The notes: a model not told the origin generated them from the letters alone. DNA of 64,000 nt from Ignavibacteriota bacterium (GCA_963801355.1 CAWDEM010000008.1:544001-608000), one strand, 5' to 3'. Numbered from the stretch's first letter, positions 876 to 45,451 are shown. Made by a program: numbers and translations.

Positions 876-3800
876 TCAGGCGGTCTGTTGCCCGGACCTC
901 CTTGCCATCCAGGCCTTTACCTTTTGTCCTCTTTGCTCCGCCACGATGTAAATCACGGGCACAACCAGCAGTGTCAATATAGTACCGACGGTCAAGCCCC
1001 CCATGACTGATCTCGCCATAGGTGCCCAGCTCTCGCCGCTTTCCCCTACGCCAAGGGCGAGCGGAAACAGCCCGAGAATTGTCGTCAGCGCTGTCATCAG
1101 CACCGGACGGAGGCGGACCAGTCCCGCCTTCTCCACTGCTTCAAACAATTCCATGCCCTGGCGCCGCAGCTGATTCATGTAGTCGACGAGAACAATGCCG
1201 TTGTTGACGATGATCCCGACGAGCATCACGATGCCCACCAGCGACATGACATTGAGATTAGTCCCCGTCACTACAAGTCCCAGGGTCACGCCGATGACCG
1301 AGAGCGGGATAGTGAAGATGATGATGAACGGGTCAACCAGCGACTCGAATTGCGACGCCATTACCATGTAGGTCAGGAGAATGGCGACGAGGGCGGCCAG
1401 CCCCAGATACATGAACGACTCCTGTTGTTCTTTTGCCGCGCCGCTGATTTCCAGCCGGACCTCGTTCGGCACGGAGAGCCCGCGCAGCACTTTCTCGACA
1501 TCGCGTGTTGCGCCGCTCAAGTCCCTCCCGGACACGTCGAGTGTCACAGTGGCGAGTCGCTCCTGGTCTTCGCGGTTGATTTCGCGCGGGGCGGTGGAGT
1601 ATGAGACGTCCGCAACGGAGCGCAGCGGGACCTGTTTTCCTGCCGGGGTCATGATCAGGAGGTTCTCCAGATCCTCCTTGCTGAGCCGGGCCTCCTCCGT
1701 CAGCTGCACGCGGATGTTGTATTCATCCCCTCCTTCCCGGAAGATAGTCGCCACAGTGCCCAGGATGCTTGTGCTAATGGTGTTCCCGACCTGTGTCGTG
1801 CTGAGCCCGAGATCCGCAATCCGGCGGCGGTCGGGAGTGATTTTGAGTTCGGGCCGCGTCGCCTTGATACTTGCTTCCGCCTGTACGATGCCTTCCACGT
1901 TGCGCACGGCCTTCACTATCTGGGTGCTCACGGCTTCTGTGACGGCGAGATCGTGACTGAAGATCTGGACGATGATATCGCCGCCCGTGCCCATCATTGT
2001 TTCTGCGCCCCGGTCGGCAAATCGCACGTTCACATCAGAGAGCGTCTTCACGGTGTCTCGCAAGTCGTCTTGAATCTCAAACATGCTCCGGCTTCGCTGC
2101 GAGCGGTTCTTCAGACGTATGCTCAGGTCTCCTTCGTTTGAGGCTTGAGACGAGAACATCGCCATGATCCCTTCTCCCTGTCCGAAATTGATGAAGACCA
2201 TTTCCGCCTCGGGAACGAGGCCCATGACGATTTCGTTGAGCTGCTTTGCACTTTTCTCCATGGCGGGGAGGCTGGTGCCGGGCGAGCGGTCAAGCGTCAT
2301 GGACATGAAGCCCATGTCGTTTTGAGGCATGAAGTCGCCGCCCAGGTTCATCAGGACAAGGATCGCCACGACGAAAGCGCCGGTCGAGTACCAGAGCACC
2401 CGCGCGCGATGGAGGACGCACCAATGCAGCCACCCCGCGTAGAATCGGTGCAGTTTCTCGAGCCAGGTGCCCACATTCCGCCCGAAACGTTCCCAGAACC
2501 CCGGCTTGTGCGCGCGACCGTGACGTCCGAGAAAGCGGGATGCCAGGAGCGGGACGAGCGTCAATGCCACGAGCAGCGAAAGGGAGAGCGAGAAGCAGAT
2601 GGTAATCACCATCTCTTTGAAAAGTTCGCCCGCCAGCCCGGGGACGAACAGTACGGGGACGAAGACAGCCAAGGTTGTCAACGTTGAGGCTGTAATCGCC
2701 ATCGCCACCTCCGTCGTGCCGACATCCGCTGCCTCACGGGGCGCTTTCCCCTCCTGATTGTGGCGGAAGATGCTCTCGAGCACAACGATGGAGTTGTCGA
2801 CAATCATCCCCACGGCCAGCGCGAGCCCCGCCATGGAGATGATATTCAGCGTGAGTCCGGATTGATCCATCACGGCGAAGGTGACGATTATGGAAACCGG
2901 GATGGACACTGCCACGATGAGTGAACTGCGGACATTACGCAGGAAGAACAGCAGCACCAGAAAGGTGAGTCCCACCGCCTGGATAGCCGTTGATCCGAGA
3001 TTCGACATCGACTGGTTGATAAAGACCGACGTATCGTAGAATATCCCCAGTTTGACCCCCCGCGGGAGTTGTGACTCGACCAGCGCCATCCGTTTCACGA
3101 CTGCCCGGCAAACCTCCACCGTATTGGCGTCCGACTGTTTCTGAAGGGCAAGCATGACCGCCGGTTTTCCGTTGCTCCACACCTTCTGTCGTTGTTCCGC
3201 AAACCCATCGATGACCCTGGCGACATCCTTGACTCTGATGAGTGTCGCCCCCCGTACGGCAACGGTGGTATTCTCAATCTCATCCAGAGTGGAATATTCT
3301 CCGGCCGTCTGGAGACGTGAATTCCTGATTCTCGTCCTGGATCCATCCCGAGGGGGACTGGATGTTGTTCATGCGCAGTGCGCCGACAATCTGATCGAGG
3401 GTAACGTTTCTCGCCCGGAGCCGGCCCGGGTCGGCGAGCACTTTGATCTCGCGCCGCATGCCTCCGACGGTGAACGCGGAAGCGACGCCGGGGATGCGTT
3501 CGAGCCGCGGTTCAACGTCGTTTTCTGAAATACGCCGCAGCTCCGCCTGACCATGCAGCTGCGATTCGACGGTCATGTACATGATGGGTTGGCCGGAGAC
3601 ATCGAAAGCAAACAGCAACGGGTCTGTCATGTCGTCCGGAAACGTGCTGCGCACCAGGTCGAGGGCTTCGCGGATCTCGATCTTTGACTGGTCCATATCT
3701 GTGCCCCAGTCAAACTCCAGCATGACCAGGGAGATGCCCTCCGCCGAGGTCGAAGTGAGCTTCTTGACGTTTTTCACCGATGCGACAGATTTCTCGATGA

Positions 3801-3996
3801 TCCGCGTCACCACCGTTTCCATGTCCTCGGGCCCGACGCCCGTGTACTGGCTGATGACTGCGATCATCGGGAATTCAAGCTTCGGATAAAGGTCCAGCTT
3901 CAGGCGCACCAGCGAGAAAACGCCGAACCCGATCGCAATGAGATAAATCATCAGGGTCGTGACTGCCCGCCTGATGGATGACTGGGTGAGCTTCAT
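876..3996 (-). pseudogene. Efflux RND transporter permease (AcrB/AcrD/AcrF family), split by a +1 frameshift near 3315 (true lesion or sequencing error)
   Basis: ORF 3280..3996 gives the RND N-terminus (LKLDLYPKLEFP...GVGPEDME). ORF 876..3182 gives the rest (GMIVDNSIVVLE, GIIVNNGIVLVD, RLRPVLMT). Removing one base in TTCACGTCTCCAG restores ...QEFTLQTAGEYSTLDEIEN... and a protein of about 1039 aa. Confidence 0.8.
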
Positions 3997-6660: not shown

Positions 6661-7827
6661 TCATGCAGCGGGCGGTGCGGAATTCCTGTGTATGATCTTT
6701 GCGCCGTCGAATCCGTTGAACTTTGTCGCCGAGGCGATGCTGTACGCGCCGATGTTTTCCGTGTACAGGTAATCTCCTATCTCGAGGGTCCACGGGAGTT
6801 CCACGGAGAGGGATATTTTGTCGAAGCTGTCGCAGGTCGGCCCCACAACGGCGCAGATTTCAGACTCGCCCTCCTTGAAGGCGTGGAAATTCGGGATCCA
6901 GTGATCATAGACCACGCCGGAAAATGTGTGGTACACCCCGTCATTAATGTGGTAGTATACCTTGCCGTTCCTTCGTGCTTTGCCGATAATTTCCGAGACG
7001 AGCATTCCTGCAGTCGCGGCAATGAAGCGGCCCGGTTCGGCCACGATCTCGATGTCATTCGGGAACAGCCTCGCGAACTCGGAATTGAGAAGGGTGGCCA
7101 GTTTCTCAAATTGAGGGACCTGCGGATCGTAGGGAACGGGGAACCCTCCGCCGATGTCGATGAGATTGAGCGGGAATCCCTTGTTACGTGCGTCGCGCAA
7201 TACGGTCGAGGCAATAGCGAGCGCCACGGTGAAGTTGTCGAAATTGGTACACTGACTGCCGACGTGAAAACTGATCCCCTCGACCTTCAGGCCCATGTCA
7301 AACGCCTGCTGGATAAGCTGCTGTGCATCACCCGGCTCGGCTCCGAACTTGGAGCTCATCTCGACCTGTGAGCCCGTGTCAGGGACCTTCAATCGCAGGA
7401 CCAGACCGGCGGTGTCGCAATGATGCTTGATCTTTATGAGCTCGCCGCTGTTATCATACGTCATCAGCGGTTTGTATTGCTTGATCCTGCTCAGTGTGTC
7501 GCGGTCTTTGATCGTGTTGGAAAAAATGATCTTGTCCCAGACGAAATACTTCTTTTCCTTTCGTTCGAAGTGCTTGATGTACTGATACACCTGCATGAAT
7601 TCGTTAAAGGAGGCCACATCGAAGCTCGAACCTTCCTCGAACAGCGTTTCGATGATCTTCTGGTTGGAATTGGCCTTGACCGCATAGTAGCACTGCACCC
7701 GGGGGAGGTGCTTCTTGAATGTCCGGTAGCTCTCCCGGATTCTGTCATGGTCGATAATGAACAGGGGGGAGCCATGCTCCCCCACCAGGGCCAGAAGGTC
7801 TTCTTTCAAGGGCACAGTACGTTCCAA
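6661..7827 (-). CDS. Type III PLP-dependent ornithine (or Lys/Orn) decarboxylase
   Basis: YAVKAN (PLP lysine), FDVAS, SKFG, FHVGSQ, DIGGGF, AEPGR and GPTCD. The YDH specificity element has Asp, as in ODCs. TTG start is uncertain. Confidence 0.9.
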   Translation of the reverse strand: MERTVPLKEDLLALVGEHGSPLFIIDHDRIRESYRTFKKHLPRVQCYYAVKANSNQKIIETLFEEGSSFDVASFNEFMQVYQYIKHFERKEKKYFVWDKIIFSNTIKDRDTLSRIKQYKPLMTYDNSGELIKIKHHCDTAGLVLRLKVPDTGSQVEMSSKFGAEPGDAQQLIQQAFDMGLKVEGISFHVGSQCTNFDNFTVALAIASTVLRDARNKGFPLNLIDIGGGFPVPYDPQVPQFEKLATLLNSEFARLFPNDIEIVAEPGRFIAATAGMLVSEIIGKARRNGKVYYHINDGVYHTFSGVVYDHWIPNFHAFKEGESEICAVVGPTCDSFDKISLSVELPWTLEIGDYLYTENIGAYSIASATKFNGFDGAKIIHRNSAPPAA

Positions 7828-7866
7828 TCAGCCGACGAACGTGACAGGATGTCCAGTCGGCGAAGA

Positions 7867-7890
7867 TCGCGCGCCGCACGGGGCGCGCGA
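7867..7890. other. GC-rich 9-bp stem-loop between the DHS-like and ODC genes
   Basis: TCGCGCGCC-GCACGG-GGCGCGCGA, with no U-tract. Confidence 0.5.
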
Positions 7891-7912
7891 GCCACTGGAG
7901 TGAACGAGCTCG

Positions 7913-9082
7913 TTACGCAGGGAGCTTCTTCATCAGGGACTTCAACTCATCAACTTCCTTGTTGTTCTCGAGATACGATTCGATCAACCTCTTTCGCAAT
8001 TCGTCACCGCGGTCATAGAGGCGCTTCAGCGTCTTCGGTTTTGTCGTCTGACAGACGTAAGCGACGAGCAGCGGGAATGCGACCGTCACGTCGACGTAGG
8101 CTGTCACGGTTTGTTCAAGCTGTGTGGGATCAATCTTTCCCCAGCTGACCGCTTCGCTGGGAGGCGCGCCGGAAAGTCCGCCGGTGTCCGGACGGGCATC
8201 GGTGATATTGATGTCATAATCCTGGCCGGCCTCCGGGATCATGAGCACTTCCTGAATTTGGGGCTCCGTTTGCAGCAGGAAATTCTTCGGACTCCCGCCG
8301 CCGATCAGGAGCACGCCGGTTTTGCCTTTCTCGTATCTCTTGGCGTTCAGGATGATGGCGGTGGAATCGTTGACATCGATGCTGGGATTGATTTCCAGTT
8401 TGAAATAGTTCTTGAGGCCCGCCGCCTCGGCCAGCAGTTCCAGCCCCGCCACGTTCATGCCGATTGTCGAATCACCCGGTGAGGATGTGAACACGGGGAT
8501 CCCGTTGCGGTATGCAGCCGCGAGTACACTGACCTGGCCGAGATTGTTCCGCTGTTCGTACTCGTTCAGGACCTTCCCCAGAAGGTGGTAGTATTCCCGG
8601 GTGCCCATCTGTTTCTGGAACTCCGGCCGGAGCATAATCTTGCGCAGGATGCGGTCAGTGGCCATCAACACATCTTCATAGTCGAAAAGGATATCGTAGA
8701 TCCGGGTGACGCCCTTCTCGCGTAAATCGGCGTCGTCGACCGTGTGGCTGCCGCGGTAGAGCGGCATGTTGAGGGCAAAGTGCATGTCATGATACATGTT
8801 GGCCCCGGTTGCCACCATCCAGTCCACGAAGCCGTGATTCATGAGGGGAATGATGGTTGATGGCCCGAGACCGGCAGGGGTCAGTGCACCGGCAATGCTC
8901 ATGCCGATGGTGACGTCCTGCTGGGAGTATTTGTCGCGCATCAGCTGACACGCGGCCCTGAGTCGTCCGCCGTTATAGGCATCCATGTTGTCGATAACGC
9001 TTGCAATGGTGCTTTCGGCTGAAATCGGCTGTGGGAGAACCCTTTTTCCCGACAGATATTGCTGCTTTGACGAGTGGTGCAT
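7913..9082 (-). CDS. speY: Deoxyhypusine synthase-like protein (homospermidine biosynthesis, SpeY-type)
   Basis: GALTPAGLG, TGANMYHD, GGGSPKNF and DTGGLSGAPPSEAVSWGK, which keeps the catalytic Lys. Flanked by agmatinase and ODC. Confidence 0.88.
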   Translation of the reverse strand: MHHSSKQQYLSGKRVLPQPISAESTIASVIDNMDAYNGGRLRAACQLMRDKYSQQDVTIGMSIAGALTPAGLGPSTIIPLMNHGFVDWMVATGANMYHDMHFALNMPLYRGSHTVDDADLREKGVTRIYDILFDYEDVLMATDRILRKIMLRPEFQKQMGTREYYHLLGKVLNEYEQRNNLGQVSVLAAAYRNGIPVFTSSPGDSTIGMNVAGLELLAEAAGLKNYFKLEINPSIDVNDSTAIILNAKRYEKGKTGVLLIGGGSPKNFLLQTEPQIQEVLMIPEAGQDYDINITDARPDTGGLSGAPPSEAVSWGKIDPTQLEQTVTAYVDVTVAFPLLVAYVCQTTKPKTLKRLYDRGDELRKRLIESYLENNKEVDELKSLMKKLPA

Positions 9083-9093
9083 GGCCTTTCCTA

Positions 9094-10005
9094 TCAGCGT
9101 GTGCGCTTCATGAAAGCATAGTTCATCAACTTGTAAGTGAGTTTTGCCGCCGTGTAGTCGGGGTGCGGAAACCCCTTCATCGGGGCATACTCAACGACAT
9201 CGCATCCGACGATCTCCCGCTGGTCTCCAATCATGCAAAGAAGTTGCATTGTTTCAGACCAGAAAAGGCCGTTCGGCTCGGGCGTACCCGTACTCGGCAT
9301 GATTGAGGGATCGAGGCCGTCCACATCGAACGTCACGTACACATGCTGCGACAGCTTCGGGAGCACCCCGGACATCCAGTTGCTGTCCGCCCGGATCTGG
9401 TGGGCAAACAGGGTCGTCACACCCTTGTCACGTATAAACGTCGCTTCCTCCGGGGAGAGTGCCCGGATGCCGACCTGCACGATATGTGCCGGATCCAGGA
9501 ATTCGCAGACGCGGGCCATGACACAGGCATGACTGAATCTGGTCCCCTCATACGTCATCCGCAGATCGGCATGTGCATCGAAGTGGACCACAGAAAGATC
9601 GGGATAGACCTCGGCGTATGCCCTGATGGGCGATTGCGACACAGTGTGCTCCCCACCCAGGAGCATGACAAACTTCTTTCGCGCAAGAAGTTCCTTCACA
9701 GCGTCGTATATCGCCTGGACTGCCTTCGCGTCGACCTTTTTGCCGAGCACAAGGGGAGGCAGCGTTGTTATACCGGCGTCTCTACACAATTCCGTGCCGA
9801 GTTCCTCGTCGTAGTACTCCACATAGCGTGAGGCGTTGAGGATTGCCCTCGGCCCGTTCCGCGTCCCCCGGCCGTAGCTGACGGTGTGCTCATACGGCAC
9901 GGGAAGAACAACGATTTTGGCGCTGTCAAAGGTCGACATGTGGCGGTCAAGACCGAGGAAGTTGCCCTTTGCCGGCAAGGATCTGAACTTGTTGGCAGTA
10001 TGCAT
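9094..10005 (-). CDS. speB: Agmatinase / ureohydrolase
   Basis: GGEHTVS, HFDAHADLR, SHAC and TFDVDGLDPSIMPSTGTPEPNG. Start taken at ATG 10005 (MHTANK). Confidence 0.92.
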   Translation of the reverse strand: MHTANKFRSLPAKGNFLGLDRHMSTFDSAKIVVLPVPYEHTVSYGRGTRNGPRAILNASRYVEYYDEELGTELCRDAGITTLPPLVLGKKVDAKAVQAIYDAVKELLARKKFVMLLGGEHTVSQSPIRAYAEVYPDLSVVHFDAHADLRMTYEGTRFSHACVMARVCEFLDPAHIVQVGIRALSPEEATFIRDKGVTTLFAHQIRADSNWMSGVLPKLSQHVYVTFDVDGLDPSIMPSTGTPEPNGLFWSETMQLLCMIGDQREIVGCDVVEYAPMKGFPHPDYTAAKLTYKLMNYAFMKRTR

Positions 10006-10047
10006 GAGAGTCGAGCAGAGGTGGTGGAAATGCAGTAATGTAGTGTG

Positions 10048-10076
10048 AAGGTAGGACAGAAACAGCTGAGATGCAA
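10048..10076 (-). promoter_or_regulatory. Putative sigma70 promoter for the polyamine cluster
   Basis: TTGCAT-17 nt-TACCTT on the minus strand, about 40 nt upstream of speB. Confidence 0.4.
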
Positions 10077-10078
10077 GA

Positions 10079-12169
10079 CTAGTAAATCTGTCCGAAATTG
10101 AGGTACACACCTGTGGTTTCGGAACCAAACCCGACGTCACAGCGCACCACGAAGGTGTCCATCGAGAAGCGGATGCCGGCCGTGGGATTCCACTTCCAGT
10201 TGGGCCAGCCTACCAGCGAAAGTGATTCCCAAACGTTCCCGGCGTCCAGAGCGGCCACGCCGCCAAACCTCCCGAAAATAGGGAACCGCAACTCGGCGTT
10301 GGCGACAAACACTGCTTTGCCCAGGAACCTGTCTTGCACAAATCCGCGCAGCGTGTTGTTGCCTCCGAGGGGAAGCGCCATCTGGACTGGAAGGTCACCA
10401 TCGATCGCCGAGAGCTTGGTGCGCAGTGCGAGAACGGTTGTCGGGAGAAAGAGCGTGGTGTAGTGCTGGACGAGCGCATGAAAGCGCGTGAAGAGGACAC
10501 TTCCTGCAGATGAGACAGGTGCGCGGGACACTTCTGTTTCGACGAGCCATCCGGCGGAGGGTTGGACGACGCTGTTCCGCGTGTCGTAACGGCCTGCGAC
10601 GACAAGTGCGTAGGACCGGGCGATTCCCTGCGAAAGAGGAGGAAACGCCGCCGCAAGAAGACCCGCAGGCTGGATGTCGCTGTTGCGGACGTATTGAAAG
10701 CGAACGCCACCTTGGAGGACAAATGACTCGGTGAATCCCCTGCTGAGCAGGATGGAGAGTTCGAAAGGCTCCCGGGCGTAGTACTCACGGTTTCCGAATT
10801 GCGAGTCATTTCCGAACCCGAAGAAACTGTTCTTGATGTACTTGTCATAGTCCGCGATGACATCCAGGGCGACCGGATACACCGTTCGTTGACGGGTCTC
10901 AATGTCCGGGAACGAGGCGACAAATCTGTACCATCGTTCCCCCAGTGTACTATTGAACGCCGTGATGTCGAGCGATTCATTCAAGCCGAGCTGGTTCAGC
11001 AGGAAGCCCTTTGCCCCGTACCCGAAACCCACATCCGTGTCGTACGAAACGATCGGGAATGCTTCGATCGCCGGTTCCGCTATTGGCGTCGTCACATCCG
11101 CACGTCCCGCGGGCATGCCGGGATCCCGGGGGATTGTCACGGCAACGCCATAGTGGTCCGATGCATACACGCCGTCCACCGGCTCTGAAAATACCAAGCG
11201 TTCGGATGCTCTGTCCGCTAAGGACACCGCAGGGCTGAGGTATATATAGTCGAGGCGCTGGGGGGTCGAGTCGCTGACGGCGCCGTAGAGATCATATCCG
11301 GTCCGCGGTGTACCCCGTGCATCGACGTGCGCGGTCGTGAAGGCGATATTGGAGTTCCTGTGTGCATCCCACGTAACAGCGCGATCGGAGAAATTGAACG
11401 GAGTCAGGAGATTGAGAGAATGGATGCACTCTCGAAAGCTTGAGTCTCCCGGCTGACAGTTGAAGTCCCCTCCCAGCACAAAGGGAGACCCGCCGGACAA
11501 CTGATGGACAAAGTCCGCAAGAGACTCAAATTGCTCGTTCTTCAGTTCCACCCGTTCGTGCAGTCGAGCCGCTGCGTCGGGGTCACCCTCGAACAGAGCG
11601 TACGTCTGACTCGGCGGCATGGCCAGGAGATGGACGTTGATCGCACGTATTCGTTTGTCACCCCAGATAAAGGATCCTTCGAGCGCGACCGCGGCATCGT
11701 TGAAGTGGAACGAGAGTGCGGAACCGTGGAGGCCGAACTTGCCGCCGATCTTGGCGGCGCGCTCGAAGCGCAATGACAGTGCCGGAGCGGCCAGGATGGC
11801 GATCCCCTCTTCGAAATTCGATGGCACTCCAAGGCCGGCGATCTTCACACCGGCATGACAGACTTGATGAATCTCTTCAAATTGAAGGGAGTCCGCCAGA
11901 CGTCCTGCATAGTGCGCCACAGGGTTTGCTTCCTGGATCATCACAAGATGCGGCTGGAGTGACCTGAGTTGCGAGAGCAGAATCTGAAACCTCCGTTCAC
12001 GGGTGGTGGGCGGCTCGTACTCTCCCATTGTGGATATACCGACATAGTCCAGGCCGGACCAGACGTTGATGGTGACCAGCCTGAGGGAGTCCAGAGGCTC
12101 CGCACCGCGGAGAGGAGCGGTCAGAGTACTCAGGGAGAGGAGGAGCAATCCTGCGCAGATTCTATCCAT
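10079..12169 (-). CDS. Endonuclease/exonuclease/phosphatase (EEP) domain fused to an Omp85/BamA-TamA family beta-barrel
   Basis: Signal peptide, then EEP motifs TINVW, IQEA, NVHL, GGDFN, RLDYIY and SDH. A Pro-rich linker leads to a barrel with FPIVSYDTDVGFGYG, RYDTRN, LRGF (loop-6 motif), AELRFPI and a C-terminal NFGQIY beta-signal. Confidence 0.85.
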   Translation of the reverse strand: MDRICAGLLLLSLSTLTAPLRGAEPLDSLRLVTINVWSGLDYVGISTMGEYEPPTTRERRFQILLSQLRSLQPHLVMIQEANPVAHYAGRLADSLQFEEIHQVCHAGVKIAGLGVPSNFEEGIAILAAPALSLRFERAAKIGGKFGLHGSALSFHFNDAAVALEGSFIWGDKRIRAINVHLLAMPPSQTYALFEGDPDAAARLHERVELKNEQFESLADFVHQLSGGSPFVLGGDFNCQPGDSSFRECIHSLNLLTPFNFSDRAVTWDAHRNSNIAFTTAHVDARGTPRTGYDLYGAVSDSTPQRLDYIYLSPAVSLADRASERLVFSEPVDGVYASDHYGVAVTIPRDPGMPAGRADVTTPIAEPAIEAFPIVSYDTDVGFGYGAKGFLLNQLGLNESLDITAFNSTLGERWYRFVASFPDIETRQRTVYPVALDVIADYDKYIKNSFFGFGNDSQFGNREYYAREPFELSILLSRGFTESFVLQGGVRFQYVRNSDIQPAGLLAAAFPPLSQGIARSYALVVAGRYDTRNSVVQPSAGWLVETEVSRAPVSSAGSVLFTRFHALVQHYTTLFLPTTVLALRTKLSAIDGDLPVQMALPLGGNNTLRGFVQDRFLGKAVFVANAELRFPIFGRFGGVAALDAGNVWESLSLVGWPNWKWNPTAGIRFSMDTFVVRCDVGFGSETTGVYLNFGQIY

Positions 12170-26694: not shown

Positions 26695-28839
26695 CTAACG
26701 GATGATGATCAACTTCTCATATGACGTCTCACCCTTAGCGTACCCCTTGCCTGTGACGGGATCAGTATAGTCCGCCGTGACGGTGAAATGCACGATGTAG
26801 ACCCCGCTCACCACCACCTGCCGGGAGGAGGAAAGTGAGTTCCACGTCTCGTCGCCGCTGCCGTTTTCGTGTTCAATCTGGTTGATCAGATCCCCATTGT
26901 CCGAATAAATCCTGATCGTGCAGTGTCCGGGGATGTTCAGGAACATGATTTTGTCCGGTTCGCCGGGATACTGCATGCCGGGAGAAGCGATGTTGTACGG
27001 GTTTGGCACAATGCGGATCGACGACAGGGCCTCTCCGGCCTTCCGCCGCAAATACGCGGGCTGGTTGGTTCGCGTGTAGAACCGATTGCTCACGAGTTGT
27101 CCGGTCGGATTCGGTCCTCCGGTGGCATTGTCGCTGCCGTCAGTGAATGCACTGACGTAGTAGTAGTACGAGACGCCCCGCTGGGCTGTGATGTCGTCGA
27201 ACGATGTGTTGCCCGGACCAAGACTGGCAATCTCCTGGAATGTTGTATCGGTTTTCCCGGTCGCGCGGAACACTTTGTATCCGCCGAATGCGGGATTCTT
27301 CTCGGAGGCACTTGGGACCCAGGAGAGGCTGATGCGATCGCCGCCGGAGGTCACCGAGAACTGTGCCGGCGGCAACGGCGCCGCCGGAATCCGGTAGCCG
27401 AGGTCATAGTTGCGTTTCGCACGGCTGAATGTCGACATGATTGAATCCCTGCCGGTGTAGACCCATGCGTCCTTGAATGCATCCTTGTCCTGGGTCGTTG
27501 TGCCGTTGGGCAGGGTGAAAGGACCCTTGAACGTTGGATCGTCGAACGCTTTCTTCCAGAGTCCGCCCACCTCGTAACATCTCGCACGGTTCAATCCCGA
27601 CACTCCCTCCGCCATGACGATCACCACGCTGTCGCCCGGGGCCAGATCGTACGGTCCGAAATTCATCCAGAGGTTTGTCCCGCCGCCGTCGCCGTGGACA
27701 TTCCAGGGGTCGGGTTTTGTGGCCATGTACTTCTCATCCATGCGTTCGCTGGCACTTCCCAGCCCCTTGTACGGCATTCCGCTCAACATTTTGTACATGT
27801 CGACATGGAGCGGCAGCGTACCGTACGTCATGTCGCCAAGGGCCGGATACGTATCACCGGCGTGCCAGCCAAGGGTGTTCGGCTGCGCTGGGTCGTCACT
27901 CCTGTCACTTGTGCTTTTGTCCACATGAAGGACGACGATTCCTGCGAACTGCGGGGCGCGAAGCCGGCCGTCTCCGGTCCGGTATGGGCCGCCGATGTTG
28001 TTGAAGGTGTTCACCGCCGATTGGCCCGCCCAGCAGTATCCTGCGCGGAGCCACTGAGGAATCCCGCTGGACTCGGTCAGAACATCACTGGCGTGCTGGA
28101 GGTAGTCTTCGCCGCGCCTGGTCACCCAGGTGTGCTTGCCATAATCCTGGCCGTCGGCAATACTGAAGGCTCCTTCACGGCACACACTGTAGCGGATGCC
28201 GAAACCGAACCGGAACCCCTTCACCGTGGCATTCCGGCTCTGCTGGTTCGTGGCGCTGGTGTAGCCGGTGTTCTTGAAGATGAACTCCTTGATGAAATAG
28301 TTGTCATGCCACTGCTGGCTGAATGCGAGAATGCGACGGGTCATCGTTACGCCCATGGAGGTGTTCACCACATTCGTGACGATACGGTCCGGGATCTGAT
28401 TCGGGTCGAGTTCATCGATTTCCCCCCGGTAGGCGGCGCTGATGTCGGTTCCGTCGACGAACAACAGGGGCAGGTCGATCTTCGCTGTCTGTTTGTTAAC
28501 CATGGGAAACACCGCAATGCCTGCCATCGCCGCCGTGTAGGGAACGCAGTAGTTTTCCCAGGTCTGTGCCTTGCCGTCGATGAAGTCCTGGCATCCGATC
28601 CATTGGCGCTCGATCACAGAATTATCAGTGTAGTTGTAGTCGGCCGGCCACATGAGGCCTTCATAGTAGACATCGTTCCACGCCCGCTCCGATCCGTACG
28701 CGGTGAAGCGGCTCTGGAGCGTTCCGATCCGCACGTACCGTTTCTGAGACTCCGGCACCTGGGCCGATGAGGGAATCATGGAGGAGAGCACGCAGGCTGC
28801 AACGGCGAGTACGAGATAGAACCGATGGATGGAGTACAT
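26695..28839 (-). CDS. Secreted hypothetical protein with an FN3-like domain and a variant T9SS-like C-terminal domain
   Basis: Signal peptide, FN3-like region (ISLSW...GYKVFRA...YYYYVSAF) and C-terminus IRIVPNPY...IMFLNIPGHCTIRIY...SGVYIVH...KLIIIR. Confidence 0.8.
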   Translation of the reverse strand: MYSIHRFYLVLAVAACVLSSMIPSSAQVPESQKRYVRIGTLQSRFTAYGSERAWNDVYYEGLMWPADYNYTDNSVIERQWIGCQDFIDGKAQTWENYCVPYTAAMAGIAVFPMVNKQTAKIDLPLLFVDGTDISAAYRGEIDELDPNQIPDRIVTNVVNTSMGVTMTRRILAFSQQWHDNYFIKEFIFKNTGYTSATNQQSRNATVKGFRFGFGIRYSVCREGAFSIADGQDYGKHTWVTRRGEDYLQHASDVLTESSGIPQWLRAGYCWAGQSAVNTFNNIGGPYRTGDGRLRAPQFAGIVVLHVDKSTSDRSDDPAQPNTLGWHAGDTYPALGDMTYGTLPLHVDMYKMLSGMPYKGLGSASERMDEKYMATKPDPWNVHGDGGGTNLWMNFGPYDLAPGDSVVIVMAEGVSGLNRARCYEVGGLWKKAFDDPTFKGPFTLPNGTTTQDKDAFKDAWVYTGRDSIMSTFSRAKRNYDLGYRIPAAPLPPAQFSVTSGGDRISLSWVPSASEKNPAFGGYKVFRATGKTDTTFQEIASLGPGNTSFDDITAQRGVSYYYYVSAFTDGSDNATGGPNPTGQLVSNRFYTRTNQPAYLRRKAGEALSSIRIVPNPYNIASPGMQYPGEPDKIMFLNIPGHCTIRIYSDNGDLINQIEHENGSGDETWNSLSSSRQVVVSGVYIVHFTVTADYTDPVTGKGYAKGETSYEKLIIIR

Positions 28840-28900
28840 CGTGATTCTCCCTGTGTTCATTTCAAGAAGCCGGCGCAATGGTTCCGGACACGGCACGGTG

Positions 28901-31900
28901 TCAGAAGCTCACTCTGACACCGAATACCCAGTTGCGCGGATTCAGGTACGTCAACGAGGTGATGTTCGGCATGTCGATGTACGACTTCCTGTTCTTGCGC
29001 TCCTGATTTCTGGCGCTGATCGTCGGGTCATTGTTTGGATTCGGTTCGAGCGGATCGTACGCGACATCGTCAGGACGGTACTCGCCGATCCGGTCGTCGC
29101 CTTTCTTGTCACCCTCCATCCAGTCGAAGCAGAGCGATGCAAGATAGTCCTGGTAATCGTACGAATCTGCAAAGCCGGCATAGTTGAGCAATTTGATGTT
29201 GAACAGGTTCTGCACGTCCATGTACAGCTGCACATCAAACCCGTAGAGCACCAGGGTTTTCATGAGGCGCATATCGACGTTAAAGTTGTCGCTCCACTGG
29301 ACGTTGTCGACCACGCCGGGGATCGAATTGGGATTGTAGGTGGCATAGCTTCCGGCCTGCCAGCGGGCGAGAATGTTCAGGCTCCATCCCTCGAGGGGCT
29401 TGATGCCCAGGACTGTCGGACCGAATTCCTGCGGCGAACGGAGCGTGATGTTTGCCCGTGCGTACGGCTGCGGATGCGGTTTGGTCTGGTACGGATTCAG
29501 CTGCAGATACGCGCGCTGCTTGCTCACATCCTGGTAGTAGGACGTAAGATCGAAGTATCCCGACGATTGAACGTCATAGGTGTAGTTGATGAAGCCCCCG
29601 ATCCACGAGCCGGGGACTTTCGTCAGCGTGACTTCAAATCCCCGGATGTCGGCATAATTGTTGCTCGATGCCTCGTAGTAGTGCACGGAGGTGTTGATGT
29701 TCTGATAGTAGATCCAGCCGGGTTGATGGGTCACGTCTTTGTAGTATGCCGCGATGTTCACCAGCAGCTCGTTCATCACATTCTGTTCGAAACCGAGTTC
29801 GTAGGAGATGGTCTTCTCCATCTCCATGTTCGGGTTGCCCAGATACGTCACCAGGCCGTTCGATTCACGCTGCAGCCGGAAACGCATCGACGAGGACGGC
29901 TCGGACACAAAGTGGCCGTAGTTGAAATAGAGCTTCGAATCCTCGGTGATAGGGTGCGAGATCCCGATGCGGGGACTGATATAGGTCTGCGACTGGGACT
30001 TCTCCTTCGGAGCCGCCCGTTCAATCGTATTGCCGAGGCCCTGGCTGAAGAAGAGATCGTACGTGCCGAGGTTCAGATATTCGTTGTTGGGGTTCGAGTA
30101 GTCGAGGCGCACACCAATGTTTGCGATGAACCCCTGAAACTCGAGCTTGTCCTGAATGAACCCGCCAAGCCTGTACGGATACACGTGGTAGATCATGCTC
30201 CGTGTCCAGGTTGACATCGAAGGACTGTACGTCCCCGAGTTGATGTCGAGATCGTCATACGTAAACTGGAAGCCCGCCTTGAATTGATTGTTCATGTCGA
30301 ACTGCGTCGTCAGGTCTGCACGCAAGCTGGTGGTCGAGTTCACACTCTCGTCGCGTCCCAGGTTCATCCATCCGCCGGTGCTCATCACGCCGTCAATTGC
30401 TCCCGTGCTGTAGCCCCAGTAGCCGTACGGAGCCTCATCCACGAAGTATCCGGGCACCGGTTCGTACACTTTCGATGTGTCGCGCAAGGGCGATTGGTGC
30501 ACGCTGTAGCGGCTCTGGTTCCGCTGCACCGCAACCTCATACAGGGTCGTCGGGCTCAGCATGTGGGTCAGCGTCGCGCCAATCGTGTACCGATACACGG
30601 AGCTCGGACTGAAGTAGTCCGGCATGTACAAAATATTCATGCCGGCGGTGCTGCTCAGGAGATCTGCAACCTCCGACTGACTCCGCAGAACATAGCCGGT
30701 CGGCGCTGTTGTCCAGTCGAACGGGGACACGGAGTACTGCTCTCCATAGAGGCCGAGGACGACAAGCTTCATGGTGGGGGTAATGTCGGCAGTGAGCTTC
30801 AGTTGGGTGTGGTTCTCGGTGTAGGCATCTCTCGAGAGCGGGACGACGAACATGTCGCGCTGGTTGAAATGCGAGAGATAGAATCGCAGGTTTCCCAGCT
30901 CTTCGCTGATAAAAGGAAGCGGCCCGCCAACGCCGGCGTCAATGACATAGTCCGGTTTGGTGATATCGCCCGCACGCCGGCGCTGCCACTGCCAGAGTTG
31001 TCGAGCGCCTTCAGGCGTGAGGTCATTCTTCGGGTCTTTGTCCTGCATGGTGGCCAGCGACACCGCGTTCCATCCCTGAAAGTATGGATACTGATGCTGG
31101 GTGTACTGATCCCAGCCACCGTTCTTCGTGCCCACCCAGCACACCGCCTCATCTGTATAGGGGCGGTTGAAATAGGACCCCGGATCGTAGAGCGACATCC
31201 CGAAGTGCTTTGCTGCAGGCGGTCTGTAGCTGACATTGACCATACCGCTGTAGCGGGAGCGGTCCCCTTCCTTCGTAACGATGTTCACCACGCCGGAACG
31301 GACGTTACCGTACTCGGCATTGAAGCCGCCGGTCTGCACCTGCAACTCTTTCGTCGCCGACAAACCAACGGCGGCATAGGGGATATTGGTCCGCTCGTCG
31401 TTGAGAATGTAGCCGTCCACAACAAAGATGGTCTGGTTCGTCCCGCCTCCGCGAATGACGATACCGTCGCTTCCCTGCTCGATTCCTGCCTGCAGCGCGA
31501 GAACCGACGTCACCGTCTGTACGGGCATGGTCTCGACGTTTTTCGACTCGATGTTGAACCGGCTCGCCGAAACGTCCTTCGTCACCACCGGGCGCTGGGC
31601 GGTGACAATAACCTCCCCCGTTTCGATCGTCGTGCTCTTCAGTTGCTGATTGATGGTCGACGTCAGTTCCATCACCACCCTCACGTTTTCCACTCTGGTC
31701 TTCGTATAGCCGACCAGACTGAATTGGACCGTGTACGTACCCGGAGGGACATTGAGAATGGAATAGTAGCCGTCGACATTTGTCGAGGCCCCCATCAACG
31801 TTCCCGTGATGGTAACACCGACCCCGGGAAGCGGTTGGCCGTTTTCCGTATCGGTGACGCGCCCGGCAATCTTGCCGTTGGGTCCGGCAAGGGCGGGCAG

Positions 31901-31948
31901 GGAAATGCACAAGAGGACTATCAGTGCCGACACTATGACCTTCCTCAT
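28901..31948 (-). CDS. TonB-dependent receptor (carboxypeptidase-regulatory-like domain + plug + barrel)
   Basis: GKIAGRVTD, IRGG, GGFNAEYGNVRSGVVNIVTKEG (plug), SPRIGISHP, GNPN and a C-terminal GVRVSF. Confidence 0.92.
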   Translation of the reverse strand: MRKVIVSALIVLLCISLPALAGPNGKIAGRVTDTENGQPLPGVGVTITGTLMGASTNVDGYYSILNVPPGTYTVQFSLVGYTKTRVENVRVVMELTSTINQQLKSTTIETGEVIVTAQRPVVTKDVSASRFNIESKNVETMPVQTVTSVLALQAGIEQGSDGIVIRGGGTNQTIFVVDGYILNDERTNIPYAAVGLSATKELQVQTGGFNAEYGNVRSGVVNIVTKEGDRSRYSGMVNVSYRPPAAKHFGMSLYDPGSYFNRPYTDEAVCWVGTKNGGWDQYTQHQYPYFQGWNAVSLATMQDKDPKNDLTPEGARQLWQWQRRRAGDITKPDYVIDAGVGGPLPFISEELGNLRFYLSHFNQRDMFVVPLSRDAYTENHTQLKLTADITPTMKLVVLGLYGEQYSVSPFDWTTAPTGYVLRSQSEVADLLSSTAGMNILYMPDYFSPSSVYRYTIGATLTHMLSPTTLYEVAVQRNQSRYSVHQSPLRDTSKVYEPVPGYFVDEAPYGYWGYSTGAIDGVMSTGGWMNLGRDESVNSTTSLRADLTTQFDMNNQFKAGFQFTYDDLDINSGTYSPSMSTWTRSMIYHVYPYRLGGFIQDKLEFQGFIANIGVRLDYSNPNNEYLNLGTYDLFFSQGLGNTIERAAPKEKSQSQTYISPRIGISHPITEDSKLYFNYGHFVSEPSSSMRFRLQRESNGLVTYLGNPNMEMEKTISYELGFEQNVMNELLVNIAAYYKDVTHQPGWIYYQNINTSVHYYEASSNNYADIRGFEVTLTKVPGSWIGGFINYTYDVQSSGYFDLTSYYQDVSKQRAYLQLNPYQTKPHPQPYARANITLRSPQEFGPTVLGIKPLEGWSLNILARWQAGSYATYNPNSIPGVVDNVQWSDNFNVDMRLMKTLVLYGFDVQLYMDVQNLFNIKLLNYAGFADSYDYQDYLASLCFDWMEGDKKGDDRIGEYRPDDVAYDPLEPNPNNDPTISARNQERKNRKSYIDMPNITSLTYLNPRNWVFGVRVSF

Positions 31949-32007
31949 GGTTGCGCTCCTCTAGGACAAAAACTCAATGATTGACATCCCATTCTTCAGT
32001 GTCATCC

Positions 32008-33042
32008 TTACATAGCGAACTTCACGGAAATGCGCTGGATATTGTTGAAGATCCTGTGAGGCATATACGAGTAATCGACCGCGATGCCGGCTTGCTGCAG
32101 GCCGATGCCGGCCGTCAGGTCGTAGTCCGGATGATTGGTAATGTACCCCACCCGGACCGCAACTGTCTTGCTGAAGACATACTCACCGCCGATATTCAGA
32201 AATTCCTCGTACGAGCGGGGGTGCACCGCATCGACAGAGGCGAAGAAGGAATGGTCCTCGCCGATTCCCGGCACGAGATCCAGCAGGTTCATGGAGATGC
32301 CGATCTTGAACGAGAGTGGAAGCTGGAAGCTTTCACGTTCGTACTTGATTTCCGGTGCGAAATTATTGACTGCGACGCCGAAGGCGAGACTCTTCAGTCC
32401 GGTCCTGAACATCGTGCCAAAATCGAATGCCAGGGTACCGATGGAGTAATCTCTCAACTCATTGGTAGTGTCCCGCCGCGTTGTCCCGTTACTGTTGACC
32501 ACGGTCGTGTACAGGGGCACAACGCTCTGGCCGAGGCTCTGATATGCATATTTGACCTGTCCGCCGACAGAGAATTGGTCAGAGAGGGCTCTCCCGTACC
32601 CGACTCCGATGACAAAAGCGCTGGGAAGCGGCCAACCTTCCATATCCTGGTACCCCTGATCGTTCGATGCAACCTGGGTGAAATGGAAATCCCCGTAGTT
32701 GATGGTCATGAAGCTCACCCCGATAACACCGTAGTCGCCTTGAAACGGACGGAAGGCAACGGTCCCCGACACATATTTGATATCGGCGATCCATTTCATG
32801 GGGCTGATCGAGAGGTCGACGAACGTCTTGATCCCGGCGAGGCCTGCGGGGTTGTAGAAGAGGGATGCTGAGGACCCCTCGATGGTTGTGAAGGCCTCTC
32901 CCATGCCGGTGGCACGAGCATCCGTGCCGACGCTCAGGAAGTTGAATCCGGTTTGTCCCAGTTTGGCTTGTCCGAATGCCGCCGATGCGAGCAAACCGGT
33001 CACGACGACAATCGTTGCGCTCCACATCCCGATTCGTTTCAT
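32008..33042 (-). CDS. PorV/PorQ family outer membrane beta-barrel
   Basis: FLSVGTDARATGMGEAF...SLFYNPAGLA FadL/PorV-type N-terminus, AVRVGY, IAVDYSY and a C-terminal ISVKFAM. ATGA overlap with the upstream gene. Confidence 0.88.
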   Translation of the reverse strand: MKRIGMWSATIVVVTGLLASAAFGQAKLGQTGFNFLSVGTDARATGMGEAFTTIEGSSASLFYNPAGLAGIKTFVDLSISPMKWIADIKYVSGTVAFRPFQGDYGVIGVSFMTINYGDFHFTQVASNDQGYQDMEGWPLPSAFVIGVGYGRALSDQFSVGGQVKYAYQSLGQSVVPLYTTVVNSNGTTRRDTTNELRDYSIGTLAFDFGTMFRTGLKSLAFGVAVNNFAPEIKYERESFQLPLSFKIGISMNLLDLVPGIGEDHSFFASVDAVHPRSYEEFLNIGGEYVFSKTVAVRVGYITNHPDYDLTAGIGLQQAGIAVDYSYMPHRIFNNIQRISVKFAM

Positions 33043-34247
33043 GGAAGAATTCCTCCAAAGTACGTCGCGCTCGTTTTGCCCCGGATGAGGAATTTTAAAA
33101 GCAGACCACTCGTGCTGCTCGCAAAGAGATCTTCCCCGCTTCCCCACCCCAGGAACTTGATACCGGTGCTGAAGAGGGATTGGTAGGCAACGTACGGAGC
33201 GTGGAAAGTTTTGTCTGACTCCACGATGACGAGTCCGTCTTGCGAGTCGGTGCCGATGTACAATACGCCGTCGGAGGAGAAGGTTATGGCCAATGGGACG
33301 GCGGTCGGATAGGCGGCGCCGAAGTCGAAATAGACCTCGGGTGTACCCAAAGCCCCGGAGGTGATCGGTGCCCGCCAGATCTTTTCTCCGGCGTCCGTCC
33401 TTGCGGCAATATAGAGGTAGTCATTGTACACCCTGACTGACCGGACGTAGCCGACAAACGGATACATCGCAGTGGCCTTGTTCTTGTCCACTCTGTAGAT
33501 GTTCGTGTTGTTCCCACCCCCCCAGATATTCCCGTCTTTGTCGAAATCAATATCGGAGATATACACACCGCTGCCGAACGACGTCCAGATGGCAGCGCTT
33601 GCGCCCCCGCCGGGATTGAACCGGTAAATTGCGCGGACATTTCTTACTCCGTACAGGTACCCTCCCGGCCCCATCTTCAGGCTCGTCCACTGTGTAACTC
33701 CCGTCGTCAGGGGTGCGTAGTTCGATCGGACACCGGCCGCAGTGAATTTCAAAATGCCGGCGTCATTGCCAAAGATGGCGTATCCTGCGTACAGGTTTCC
33801 CGCAGCATCGGTTGCGAGGGCGTTCGACAGGTCGCCGGCGGCAAGCCCGCCGAAGGACGCGGTCCCGGCGTGCAGCCGGTATTGGTACGTATTGCTGAAC
33901 GGCACTGCACCCCGGACGGCAACCCTTACGCCAATGCTGTCCATGGTGACGAGGGGCGCGATCATGCTGATCCGCGTGGGGGAGACCGAAAGCAGCACCG
34001 CCGGTGAGGAATTGAAATAGACGATATTGTTCGCCGGTACCGATGAAAAGTTCGTTCCCTGTATAGCGATCGTATCCATCCCGGCAAATGCGGCGCCTGC
34101 CGGACTGATGCTGGTGATCGTCGGTGAGAGACCTTGAGGCTCGTTGGGATCATACAATCCCATGCTTTCGGGTTCCGTACAGCCGCCCAGCGCAAAAAGG
34201 CCGAGCACCACAAGAAGAAGCGAAAGAGACGTGTTCAGAGGACGCAT
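33039..34247 (-). CDS. IPT/TIG domain lipoprotein with a beta-propeller (NHL/SMP-30-like repeats)
   Basis: Lipobox LGGC, PTITSISP...IQGTNFS, and repeats ALATDAAGNLY, IDFDKDGNIW and ITFSSDGVLYIG. Confidence 0.82.
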   Translation of the reverse strand: MRPLNTSLSLLLVVLGLFALGGCTEPESMGLYDPNEPQGLSPTITSISPAGAAFAGMDTIAIQGTNFSSVPANNIVYFNSSPAVLLSVSPTRISMIAPLVTMDSIGVRVAVRGAVPFSNTYQYRLHAGTASFGGLAAGDLSNALATDAAGNLYAGYAIFGNDAGILKFTAAGVRSNYAPLTTGVTQWTSLKMGPGGYLYGVRNVRAIYRFNPGGGASAAIWTSFGSGVYISDIDFDKDGNIWGGGNNTNIYRVDKNKATAMYPFVGYVRSVRVYNDYLYIAARTDAGEKIWRAPITSGALGTPEVYFDFGAAYPTAVPLAITFSSDGVLYIGTDSQDGLVIVESDKTFHAPYVAYQSLFSTGIKFLGWGSGEDLFASSTSGLLLKFLIRGKTSATYFGGILP

Positions 34248-44554: not shown

Positions 44555-45451
44555 ATGAAGACAAACCGGGTTCTCACCGGCCTGCTCGTCACATGGACCG
44601 CGGCGTCTGTCTGTTTTGGACAGTCAGACTCACTGCGCACAAAGATCTTGAACATCATTGGTGCGAAACGTGCTGATGTAGGAGTGGCGATTCAGGGCTC
44701 CCATCCGGCCGACACGCTCTTCGTCCATGGTGACAGGCACTACCCCATGCAGAGCGTATACAAGCTGCATCTTGCATTCACGGTGCTGGATCTTGTAGAC
44801 CAGGGAAAGCTCTCACTCGATCAGAAGATCCTTGTGACAAGCAGCGATTTGCCTCCAAGGACGTGGAGCCCTCTTCGGGAACGATATCCAGGCGGCAATG
44901 TGGAATTGACCCTGCAGGAAATTCTGACTTCCACAGTCTCGGAGAGCGACAACAACGGTTGCGACATTCTGTTCCGTTTGATCGGAGGGACGGGAGTGGC
45001 CAACGCTCACATGCATAGCCTGGGTGTCACTGACGTCGCGATCGCTGCAACGGAACAGGAGATGCACAGGGCCTGGGATGTGCAATACCGGAACTGGACC
45101 ACGCCACGTGCGGCGCTTGAACTGCTCGTTGGATTCCGGGGCGGCCAATTCCTGTCGGCCGAAAGCCGGCAGGTTCTCTGGCGACTCCTCGTTGGAACGT
45201 CGACCGGACCGAAAAGGCTCAAGGGCCTGCTGCCGGAGAGCACGATCGTCGCCCACAAGACAGGTTCCTCGGGAAAAAATGAACACGGGCTTTCCGCTGC
45301 GACCAACGACATGGGCATCATCGTTCTTCCCGATGGAAGATGGATCGCCATTGCGGTGTTTGTGACTGAATCTTATGAAGATGAAGATACCAATGAGCGA
45401 ATGATTGCGGAGATAGCAAAGGCGATATGGGATTCTCAGAGGGCACAATGA
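44555..45451 (+). CDS. bla: Class A serine beta-lactamase (subclass A2; PER/VEB/CepA-like)
   Basis: PMQSVYK (SxxK), TWSP, SDNNGCD, omega loop ATEQEMH with a Glu166 equivalent, and HKTG. Confidence 0.93.
   Translation: MKTNRVLTGLLVTWTAASVCFGQSDSLRTKILNIIGAKRADVGVAIQGSHPADTLFVHGDRHYPMQSVYKLHLAFTVLDLVDQGKLSLDQKILVTSSDLPPRTWSPLRERYPGGNVELTLQEILTSTVSESDNNGCDILFRLIGGTGVANAHMHSLGVTDVAIAATEQEMHRAWDVQYRNWTTPRAALELLVGFRGGQFLSAESRQVLWRLLVGTSTGPKRLKGLLPESTIVAHKTGSSGKNEHGLSAATNDMGIIVLPDGRWIAIAVFVTESYEDEDTNERMIAEIAKAIWDSQRAQ

Follow-up and report, generated by a model that had tools for sequence, protein, structure and literature searches.

This study concerns a 64,000-nucleotide stretch of DNA from an Ignavibacteriota bacterium (GCA_963801355.1 CAWDEM010000008.1:544001-608000), referred to here as the window, and one gene within it. 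An open reading frame on the minus strand (10079-12169, ATG start) encodes a protein of 696 residues, P0001. In a Pfam scan, residues 32-339 matched the Exo_endo_phos family (PF03372, E = 1.5e-11) and residues 392-650 matched Omp85 (PF01103, E = 8.9e-20; 71.9 bits against a cut-off of 24). The gene is a fusion of an EEP phosphoesterase domain to an outer-membrane β-barrel. We interpret the product as an accessory Omp85 protein that may anchor a metal-dependent phosphoesterase, probably one for lipids, on the periplasmic face of the outer membrane, and put the chances of this reading at about even. The features of the gene are as follows.

10079..12169, minus strand: EEP-Omp85 fusion gene P0001, 696 residues (open reading frame, Pfam, model)
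12101..12169, minus strand: putative Sec-type signal peptide, about residues 1-23, with a presumed cleavage site (hydropathy; helix of low pLDDT)
11129..12091, minus strand: EEP (DNase I-like) phosphoesterase domain, residues 27-347 (PF03372, fold neighbours, kept residues)
12020..12052, minus strand: hydrophobic-tipped loop 1, residues 40-50, just after catalytic N35 and W37 (column composition; presumed surface-exposed)
11825..11848, minus strand: hydrophobic β-hairpin 2, residues 108-115 (model, column composition)
11711..11734, minus strand: hydrophobic hairpin 3, residues 146-153, which packs on turn T5 of the barrel in the predicted complex (composition, complex prediction, conservation)
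11072..11128, minus strand: linker, residues 348-366, 19 residues here and 11-22 across the family (model, fusion alignment)
10082..11071, minus strand: 16-stranded Omp85 β-barrel without POTRA domains, residues 367-696 (PF01103, model, BamA/TamA match)
10553..10582, minus strand: periplasmic turn T4, residues 530-539, part of the predicted EEP dock (covariation of 539 with 134, complex prediction)
10436..10456, minus strand: periplasmic turn T5, residues 572-578, core of the predicted EEP dock (complex prediction, conservation)
10340..10351, minus strand: loop-6 LRGF motif, residues 607-610, with putative lid-lock Arg608 and its partner Asp642 on strand 13 (fusion alignment)
10082..10114, minus strand: last strand and β-signal, residues 686-696 (model, fusion alignment)

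An AlphaFold2 model of P0001, built from a 108-row alignment, had a mean pLDDT of 93.9 and a pTM of 0.90. It comprised an EEP sandwich, an unstructured linker (no secondary structure at 348-366) and 16 barrel strands, the first at 367-377 and the last at 686-692. The original prediction, made from the sequence alone, had described a Sec signal, a complete EEP catalytic set and an Omp85 barrel with an LRGF motif and a terminal aromatic residue, and had expected a model to give a 16-strand barrel plus a DNase I-like fold. Each of these was found. The N-terminus is signal-like as judged by hydropathy, and a hydrophobic 10-mer precedes the EEP domain in 131 of 136 fusions. The last residue is Tyr in P0001 and Phe in 131 of the 138 aligned fusions. 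The claim that there is no room for POTRA domains also held: none matched at E ≤ 0.1, and only the unstructured linker separates the EEP from the barrel. That linker had been called Pro-rich and about 20 residues long, which fits P0001 (19 residues, with five Pro in 347-366) but not most of its relatives, whose linkers are not Pro-rich. No match to PF00149, PF01734 or DUF5982 was found in the Pfam scan. All NCBIfam matches were below threshold, including Omp85_fam NF047779 (116.5/200 bits), BamA TIGR03303 (34/297 bits), sphingomyelinase TIGR03395 (16.7/248.2 bits) and xth (18.6/99 bits).

In structure searches, the barrel matched Fusobacterium nucleatum BamA (Z 28.0, root-mean-square deviation (rmsd) 3.0 Å, 304 residues aligned) and TamA (Z 24.7). 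R608 and D642 were each present in 136 of 137 fusions, and form a predicted lid-lock pair; such pairing has been described for Omp85 barrels (PMC11358297). With PF01103, 16 strands, the BamA match, the loop-6 RG and the strand-13 Asp, P0001 belongs to the Omp85 superfamily. The host genome has 11 Omp85 matches, including a patatin-Omp85, two WD40-type proteins and a separate multi-POTRA BamA-like protein, and P0001 is therefore considered an accessory member.

P0001 is also the sole PF03372 match in the host genome. Its catalytic and metal-binding set comprises N35, E80, H180, G234-D235-F-N237, D307 and S337-D338-H339, and all eight catalytic residues are intact in 135 of the 137 fusions that cover both domains. 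The residue set of an active enzyme is complete, and activity is predicted. Folded alone, the EEP domain reached a pLDDT of 95.6. Its closest fold neighbours were human neutral sphingomyelinase 1, hSMPD2 (Z 25.2, rmsd 3.4 Å, 260 residues aligned, 16% identity), and the 5′-tyrosyl-DNA phosphodiesterase TDP2 (Z 24.4-24.7; rmsd 2.6 Å over 236 aligned residues at Z 24.7). Inositol polyphosphate 5-phosphatases, apurinic/apyrimidinic endonucleases and DNase I ranked lower (Z 15-17 and 18-21), a ranking that does not exclude those activities for the domain.

The fusion is not confined to the window. In a contig search, 8 of 13 loci carried it in one open frame; of the others, one was frameshifted, one had the EEP only, two had the barrel only and one was a weak unrelated match. 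The first twelve contig loci came from Bacteroidetes/Bacteroidota, Ignavibacteriaceae, Aminicenantes and one uncultured bacterium, and all were metagenome-assembled genomes, as are the named hosts generally, which limits what can be said of them. Both Pfam families were present in all of the best 120 of 293 protein matches (query included). Alignment of the query with the 107 non-fragmentary sequences among 150 listed representatives gave 23 fusions, 43 EEP-only, 31 barrel-only and 11 partial proteins, and two ESM Atlas clusters, of 102 and 100 members, carry an automatically assigned EEP/Omp85 name. The final fusion alignment has 138 rows, of which 137 span both domains. An assembly artefact and a one-off fusion, the latter among the cases that the original prediction had named as undoing it, were ruled out by the multiple single-frame loci and the 120 two-domain matches.

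The distribution is patchy. The fusion occurred in 3 of 401 genomes in a phylum-wide sample, the window's own included. In a class-level sample of 401 genomes, 58 had this barrel, with one match each; the EEP was also present in 24 and absent in 34. Within the window's own family (13 genomes) the EEP occurred in none and a bare barrel in two. Fused and unfused barrels interleave in a quick barrel tree (12 changes, at least six of them forced by well-supported branches), which indicates repeated loss or gain of the EEP. A split form, with a stand-alone EEP beside a stand-alone barrel, was not found in the 34 stand-alone loci, apart from a remnant at one of them (L109, genome G679), where 66 EEP residues lie ahead of the barrel in an apparent intermediate. 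Decaying copies were also seen, with frameshifts in four fusions and a single broken EEP fragment, among loci L010, L100, L101, L102 and L078. Two full-length fusions, P0023 and P0046 (L098:6725-8830), have lost several catalytic residues, and P0046 lies about 2 kb from an EEP-like gene with a type IX secretion system (T9SS) tail.

We then considered on which side of the membrane the enzyme would lie. Strand 1 of an Omp85 barrel begins in the periplasm, so that the turns following even strands are periplasmic; turns T4 and T5 were numbered from the strands of the AlphaFold2 model. When the whole model was compared with five Escherichia coli BAM entries, with barrels superposed, model residues 129-132 aligned to BamA 381-385, which we take to be POTRA5. 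With BamA reduced to its barrel, its residue 423 aligned to model residue 367. The full-length model would thus place the EEP domain at the pre-barrel region of BamA, in the position of POTRA5. An ESMFold2 two-chain prediction with the linker removed also docked the EEP on the barrel, with a score of 0.68, whereas the best of three controls scored 0.00. The mark used for this score was reached by 116 of 157 solved pairs and 2 of 215 mismatched pairs. The two-chain runs shared at least 94% of contacts, with a partner pLDDT of at least 89. The predicted interface comprises residues 363-365, T4 (532, 538-539) and T5 (572-578) on the barrel side, and residues 102-104, 135-140, 146-153, 159, 161 and 225-226 on the EEP side. 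These predictions support docking on T4/T5 rather than demonstrate it.

The conservation pattern of T5, which had been noticed before the complex was predicted, agrees with this dock. The family motif at T5 is L-F-Y-P-x-T, with Leu in place of Tyr in P0001. In 22 nested stand-alone barrels, the columns losing most conservation were 575, 578, 576 and 573 (the top four of 332), and on the EEP side columns 149, 138 and 137 were within the top four. Pro576 and Thr/Ser578 were both kept in 136 of 138 fusions versus 6 of 30 stand-alone barrels in the alignment, and in 22/22 versus 3/34 in the class sample, a count that leaves out the window's own genome (G000) and a contig-split fusion (G471). Of the whole barrel, it is T5 that decays in the absence of the EEP. 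Covariation was examined with a lighter form of coupling analysis, which is noisy at an effective depth of 98. Of five pairs inspected, only 134 (EEP) and 539 (T4) gave a clear inter-domain pattern: in 60 of the 71 rows with a charge at both positions the two were opposite in sign, where about 35 would be expected, and after tree collapse the same held in 25 versus 11 clades.

Several points weigh against the periplasmic dock. The BAM alignment yields range ends alone, and the EEP residues involved may be few. Residue 134 lies outside the listed interface, next to 135-140. The top-ranked inter-domain covariation pair, 69-430, lies off the interface and looks like phylogenetic noise. The BAM alignment, docking, conservation and covariation also draw on overlapping alignments and are not independent.

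The original prediction had proposed a type V-like surface enzyme, in which the EEP would be translocated and displayed on the cell surface to cleave external lipids or nucleic acids. The layout is that of an autotransporter, with an N-terminal enzyme and a C-terminal barrel, and a linker of 19-22 residues could just thread a barrel. Structure predictors moreover tend to put an N-terminal domain near strand 1, and the mycobacterial SpmT is a surface-exposed, outer-membrane-anchored sphingomyelinase (PMC4827864, PMC6712060). The two-chain complex, however, still docks on T4/T5 when it has no linker. Fusion-specific conservation is periplasmic, whereas extracellular loops 4, 5 and 7 rank with its most variable regions. 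There is no POTRA for TpsB-like handling of a substrate, and the cargo would be a globular α/β domain. Linkers as short as 11 residues, together with the conserved lid-lock pair, likewise point toward a periplasmic EEP. The host genome encodes SprA of the T9SS, so that another route for surface display is available; a relative encodes an EEP-like protein with a T9SS tail, its EEP match being just under the Pfam cut-off. In PlpD, the type Vd precedent, the enzyme domain has been shown to stay in the periplasm, refuting its secretion (PMC11116518), while a 2026 review treats surface translocation of type Vd domains as unresolved (PMC13721041). Because the model, the complex prediction and conservation all put the EEP against periplasmic turns, the surface-enzyme reading is not supported, and we consider it improbable. 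The EEP very probably faces the periplasm, and EEP-Omp85 is probably not a new secretion system.

As to the substrate, three Gly-rich hydrophobic loops (40-50, 108-115 and 146-154) are conserved in fused and stand-alone EEPs alike and, read from the strand order, would sit on the active-site face. W37 is kept in 137 of 138 fusions, two residues past the catalytic Asn (N-x-W), as is W17 in hSMPD2, a phospholipid-stabilising residue (PMC10682184). A loose lipobox-like pattern gave a Cys in 6 of 41 stand-alone EEPs. Among the activities that the original prediction had listed, its last alternative, an outer-membrane lipid-remodelling enzyme, is favoured by the hydrophobic loops, W37 and the hSMPD2 fold match. 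With a median net charge of -10, the EEP domain is acidic, which makes the DNase role that the prediction had also suggested unlikely. A sphingomyelinase in the strict sense was not established. If the topology is periplasmic, a lipid-like substrate seems somewhat better than an even prospect.

A number of observations count against the preferred lipid reading. The fold neighbours hSMPD2 and TDP2 tie (Z 25.2 vs 24.7). At the column aligned with a TDP2 Arg (column 160, HMMER register), presumably a residue of the 5′-phosphate site, Arg occurs in 5 of 138 fusions and Ala in P0001; stand-alone EEPs have Arg there in 15 of 41. The likely column of hSMPD2 K116, the essential lysine of the D-K loop, is basic in 5 of 138 fusions, with its register obtained through the TDP2 alignment and not from a residue-level structural alignment. 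The scarcity of basic residues at column 160 would weaken identity as a classical sphingomyelinase or TDP2, though conserved K109 or H155 might stand in for the D-K lysine. That the active site would face the inner leaflet, and not the lumen of the barrel, is a presumption here. On strands 2-6, many charged positions show conservation of 90% or more, which a passive anchor leaves unexplained. Lipid genes seldom occur in the neighbourhood: a gene of the UbiA family lies near 7 of 22 fusion loci, all close kin, and tblastn found a lipid-kinase match in none of the 22, although Pfam found a YegS-like kinase in two of them. The best serine palmitoyltransferase (SPT) match of the host is below cut-off (480/640 bits), and no candidate SPT or ceramide-synthase gene passed its family cut-off. 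Sphingolipid synthesis in the host is uncertain, and gene context gives weak support for the substrate.

Alternatively, a docked periplasmic EEP might scavenge soluble phosphoesters such as nucleotides, glycerophosphodiesters or sugar phosphates. These could be fed through the lumen when loop 6 opens, making a channel-coupled hydrolase that would be the mirror image of SpmT. The conserved charged residues of strands 2-6 fit such a channel, several of them being kept in stand-alone barrels too, and the predicted interface includes the segment before strand 1, which would put the EEP beneath the barrel. TDP2 and soluble EEPs match the fold just as closely. In addition, 12 of 34 stand-alone barrels vs 1 of 22 fusions have a T9SS-tailed 5′-nucleotidase-like gene within 6.5 kb, as if the barrel tended to be accompanied by one phosphoesterase or another. 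These counts use a length filter; unfiltered, 7 of 30 fusion loci scored, including short T9SS-tail matches. However, the other 22 of the 34 stand-alone barrels have no nucleotidase nearby, the loci are kin, and two fusion loci outside the sample (L002, L003) have both an EEP fusion and a nucleotidase. The lid-lock pair is conserved, Leptospira noNterm barrels were modelled as domed shut (PMC11358297), and the conserved hydrophobic loops would be left unexplained. A soluble substrate is the main rival reading, though a minority prospect.

The neighbourhood data bear on another possibility, a TamA-like factor that assembles or inserts cassette-encoded small barrels or lipoproteins, with an optional EEP that would help by editing nearby lipids or by stripping a phospho-linked group from a client. 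Small OMP_b-brl genes recur beside the fusion gene. An OmpR-type response regulator, usually with a sensor kinase, lies within 6.5 kb at 14 of 22 fusion loci vs 7 of 34 bare-barrel loci, with flanks that are uneven and in some cases cut by contig ends. Of 58 genomes with the barrel, 34 retain it but have no EEP. The last strand stops at 692, ahead of a conserved Gly, which would resemble gated Omp85s. Against an assembly role, P0001 has no POTRA, the host has its multi-POTRA BamA-like protein plus nine other Omp85 paralogues, and the window's copy stands outside the recurrent cassette, about 1.45 Mb from that two-component system and beside polyamine genes. This role is doubtful, at the same low level as surface display.

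Under the preferred reading, a periplasmic enzyme acting on lipids, P0001 would be exported by Sec, as its signal-like N-terminus suggests, and its barrel would be inserted by BAM through the C-terminal β-signal, the established route for such barrel proteins. The EEP would fold in the periplasm and dock on T4/T5, at the place of BamA's POTRA5, as modelled and as conservation suggests. Its hydrophobic active-site hairpins could then contact the inner leaflet next to strands 10-11, and the enzyme could hydrolyse a phosphate ester in a lipid, or in a molecule linked to one, perhaps a phosphosphingolipid, a lysophospholipid or a phospholipid head group. Head groups would thereby be remodelled or phosphate recovered, in the manner of PlpD, whose enzyme is a different one.

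A broader and more speculative proposal, to which we assign a low probability, is that Omp85 barrels without POTRA serve envelope enzymes as functional components and do not act as assembly factors. A conserved charged lumen or wall would hand a phosphoester to the hydrolase bound at T5, the phosphoester being either a lipid taken from the outer membrane or a solute that has been imported. In this clade the barrel would have changed partners many times, alternating between fusion to a periplasmic EEP and no fusion at all, the latter often with a T9SS-exported nucleotidase alongside. If true, the uncharacterised noNterm class of Omp85 would gain a first function, as a substrate channel or lipid-presentation platform.

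Comparison with known systems places the fusion closest to the patatin-like Omp85 proteins PlpD and FplA, formerly 'type Vd'. In both cases a Sec-exported hydrolase is N-terminal to a 16-strand Omp85 barrel that is accessory to BamA, and the enzyme domain is periplasmic, as shown for PlpD (PMC11116518) and modelled for P0001. P0001 differs in having an EEP (PF03372) and not a Ser-Asp lipase (PF01734), and in lacking POTRA, so that the enzyme would dock straight on the barrel. The 'Metallo' Omp85 proteins (PF00149 + PF01103; PMC4104836) are likewise uncharacterised, with a phosphoesterase-type domain and a POTRA-less barrel related to noNterm, but their fold is calcineurin-like and P0001 has no PF00149. 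The noNterm proteins themselves (Leptospira LIC12252/12254/12258; NF047779) share the POTRA-less barrel, loop-6 RG motif and lid-lock Asp, and the stand-alone relatives of the P0001 barrel are noNterm-type by architecture. P0001 falls short of the 200-bit cut-off, has no DUF5982 and carries a whole enzyme domain; the noNterm paper leaves function open (PMC11358297).

Among EEP enzymes, hSMPD2 and yeast Isc1 share the fold, the N-x-W and a C-terminal membrane anchor. The hSMPD2 anchor contacts residues beside the D-K loop (PMC10682184), and the P0001 barrel would touch a seemingly equivalent loop. The anchor of P0001 is a β-barrel and not helices, and the D-K lysine appears absent in most fusions. 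TDP2 shares the fold and a TWD-x3-N motif, whereas P0001 is predicted to be exported, is acidic and has extra hydrophobic hairpins, and the aligned Arg is mostly missing in fusions. In Mycobacterium tuberculosis SpmT (Rv0888), a sphingomyelinase of the EEP type is joined to an anchor or channel domain of the outer membrane, but the domain order is the opposite one, the anchor is non-Omp85 and the enzyme is surface-exposed; SpmT was the only EEP and outer-membrane-channel fusion found in print (PMC4827864, PMC6712060). BamA, TamA and TpsB differ from P0001 in having POTRA domains.

The statement in the original prediction that no characterised EEP-Omp85 fusion was known agrees with our search: no paper on one was found in the openly available literature that was searched. 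A PF03372 architecture is absent from the examined parts of the ten-subfamily Omp85 census, including its Table S2 (PMC4104836). The architecture already carries automatic database names. EEP-Omp85 is apparently an undescribed Omp85 subfamily, outside the patatin, Metallo, WD40 and POTRA-bearing groups. Every Omp85 protein characterised earlier than PlpD functions in protein assembly or translocation, and PlpD was the first to resemble a periplasm-facing lipid enzyme (PMC11116518). EEP-Omp85 would be a second such case, independent of PlpD, chemically different and lacking POTRA, and would point to 'enzyme platform' as a general barrel role. It would also provide a natural experiment on noNterm barrels, in which the same barrel has the enzyme in 24 genomes and lacks it in 34, and the docking motif is defined. 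Further unclassified architectures were seen in two other Omp85 proteins, at L053:6307-8208 and L143 (G000:C8:2674950-2677418), whose N-terminal regions of about 360 and 570 residues matched no Pfam family at E ≤ 1e-4.

The gene sits in a co-directional run, with a flavin oxidoreductase on one side and polyamine-type genes on the other. The latter, directly downstream (window 6661-10140, minus strand), comprise arginase-family, deoxyhypusine-synthase-like and ornithine-decarboxylase-like genes. A functional link to them was rejected: by inspection of open reading frame lists, they were not seen at other fusion loci and are kept only in the close relative L009. In L009:1-1137 (P0009), a further apparent intermediate at 85% nucleotide identity, the EEP and the downstream arginase-family gene are kept and about 620 unrelated bases replace the barrel, by true deletion or misassembly. 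A promoter and terminator scan at the gene was near chance level.

A link to a sphingolipid cluster was also set aside, as SPT-like, GNAT and lipid-kinase neighbours occurred in few loci only. Two loci, L004:8110-13836 and L051:500-5870, share a recurring group of a YegS-like lipid kinase, a PEMT-DUF3419 fusion, a GNAT-like gene and a pyridoxal-phosphate decarboxylase, possibly an undescribed lipid pathway. At G000:C8:1995307-2003567 (L103), a second SPT/BioF-like gene and a ThiL/AIRS-like gene have apparent lipid-kinase and radical-SAM neighbours. This group adjoins the two-component system that usually flanks EEP-Omp85, and similar genes occur in L048 and L097.

Elsewhere in the window, a gene at 876-3996 (minus strand), by its motifs a probable RND-type efflux transporter, is read as two open reading frames of 238 and 768 residues. 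The split fits a frameshift, or an error in the sequence, around 3200-3300, and upstream of the gene are adaptor-like and outer-membrane-factor-like genes. The open reading frame at 44555-45451 (plus strand) is presumably class A β-lactamase-like, again by its motifs. Judged by appearance, the region at 26695-34247 holds a TonB-dependent-receptor-like gene, a PorV-like barrel and a T9SS-cargo-like protein.

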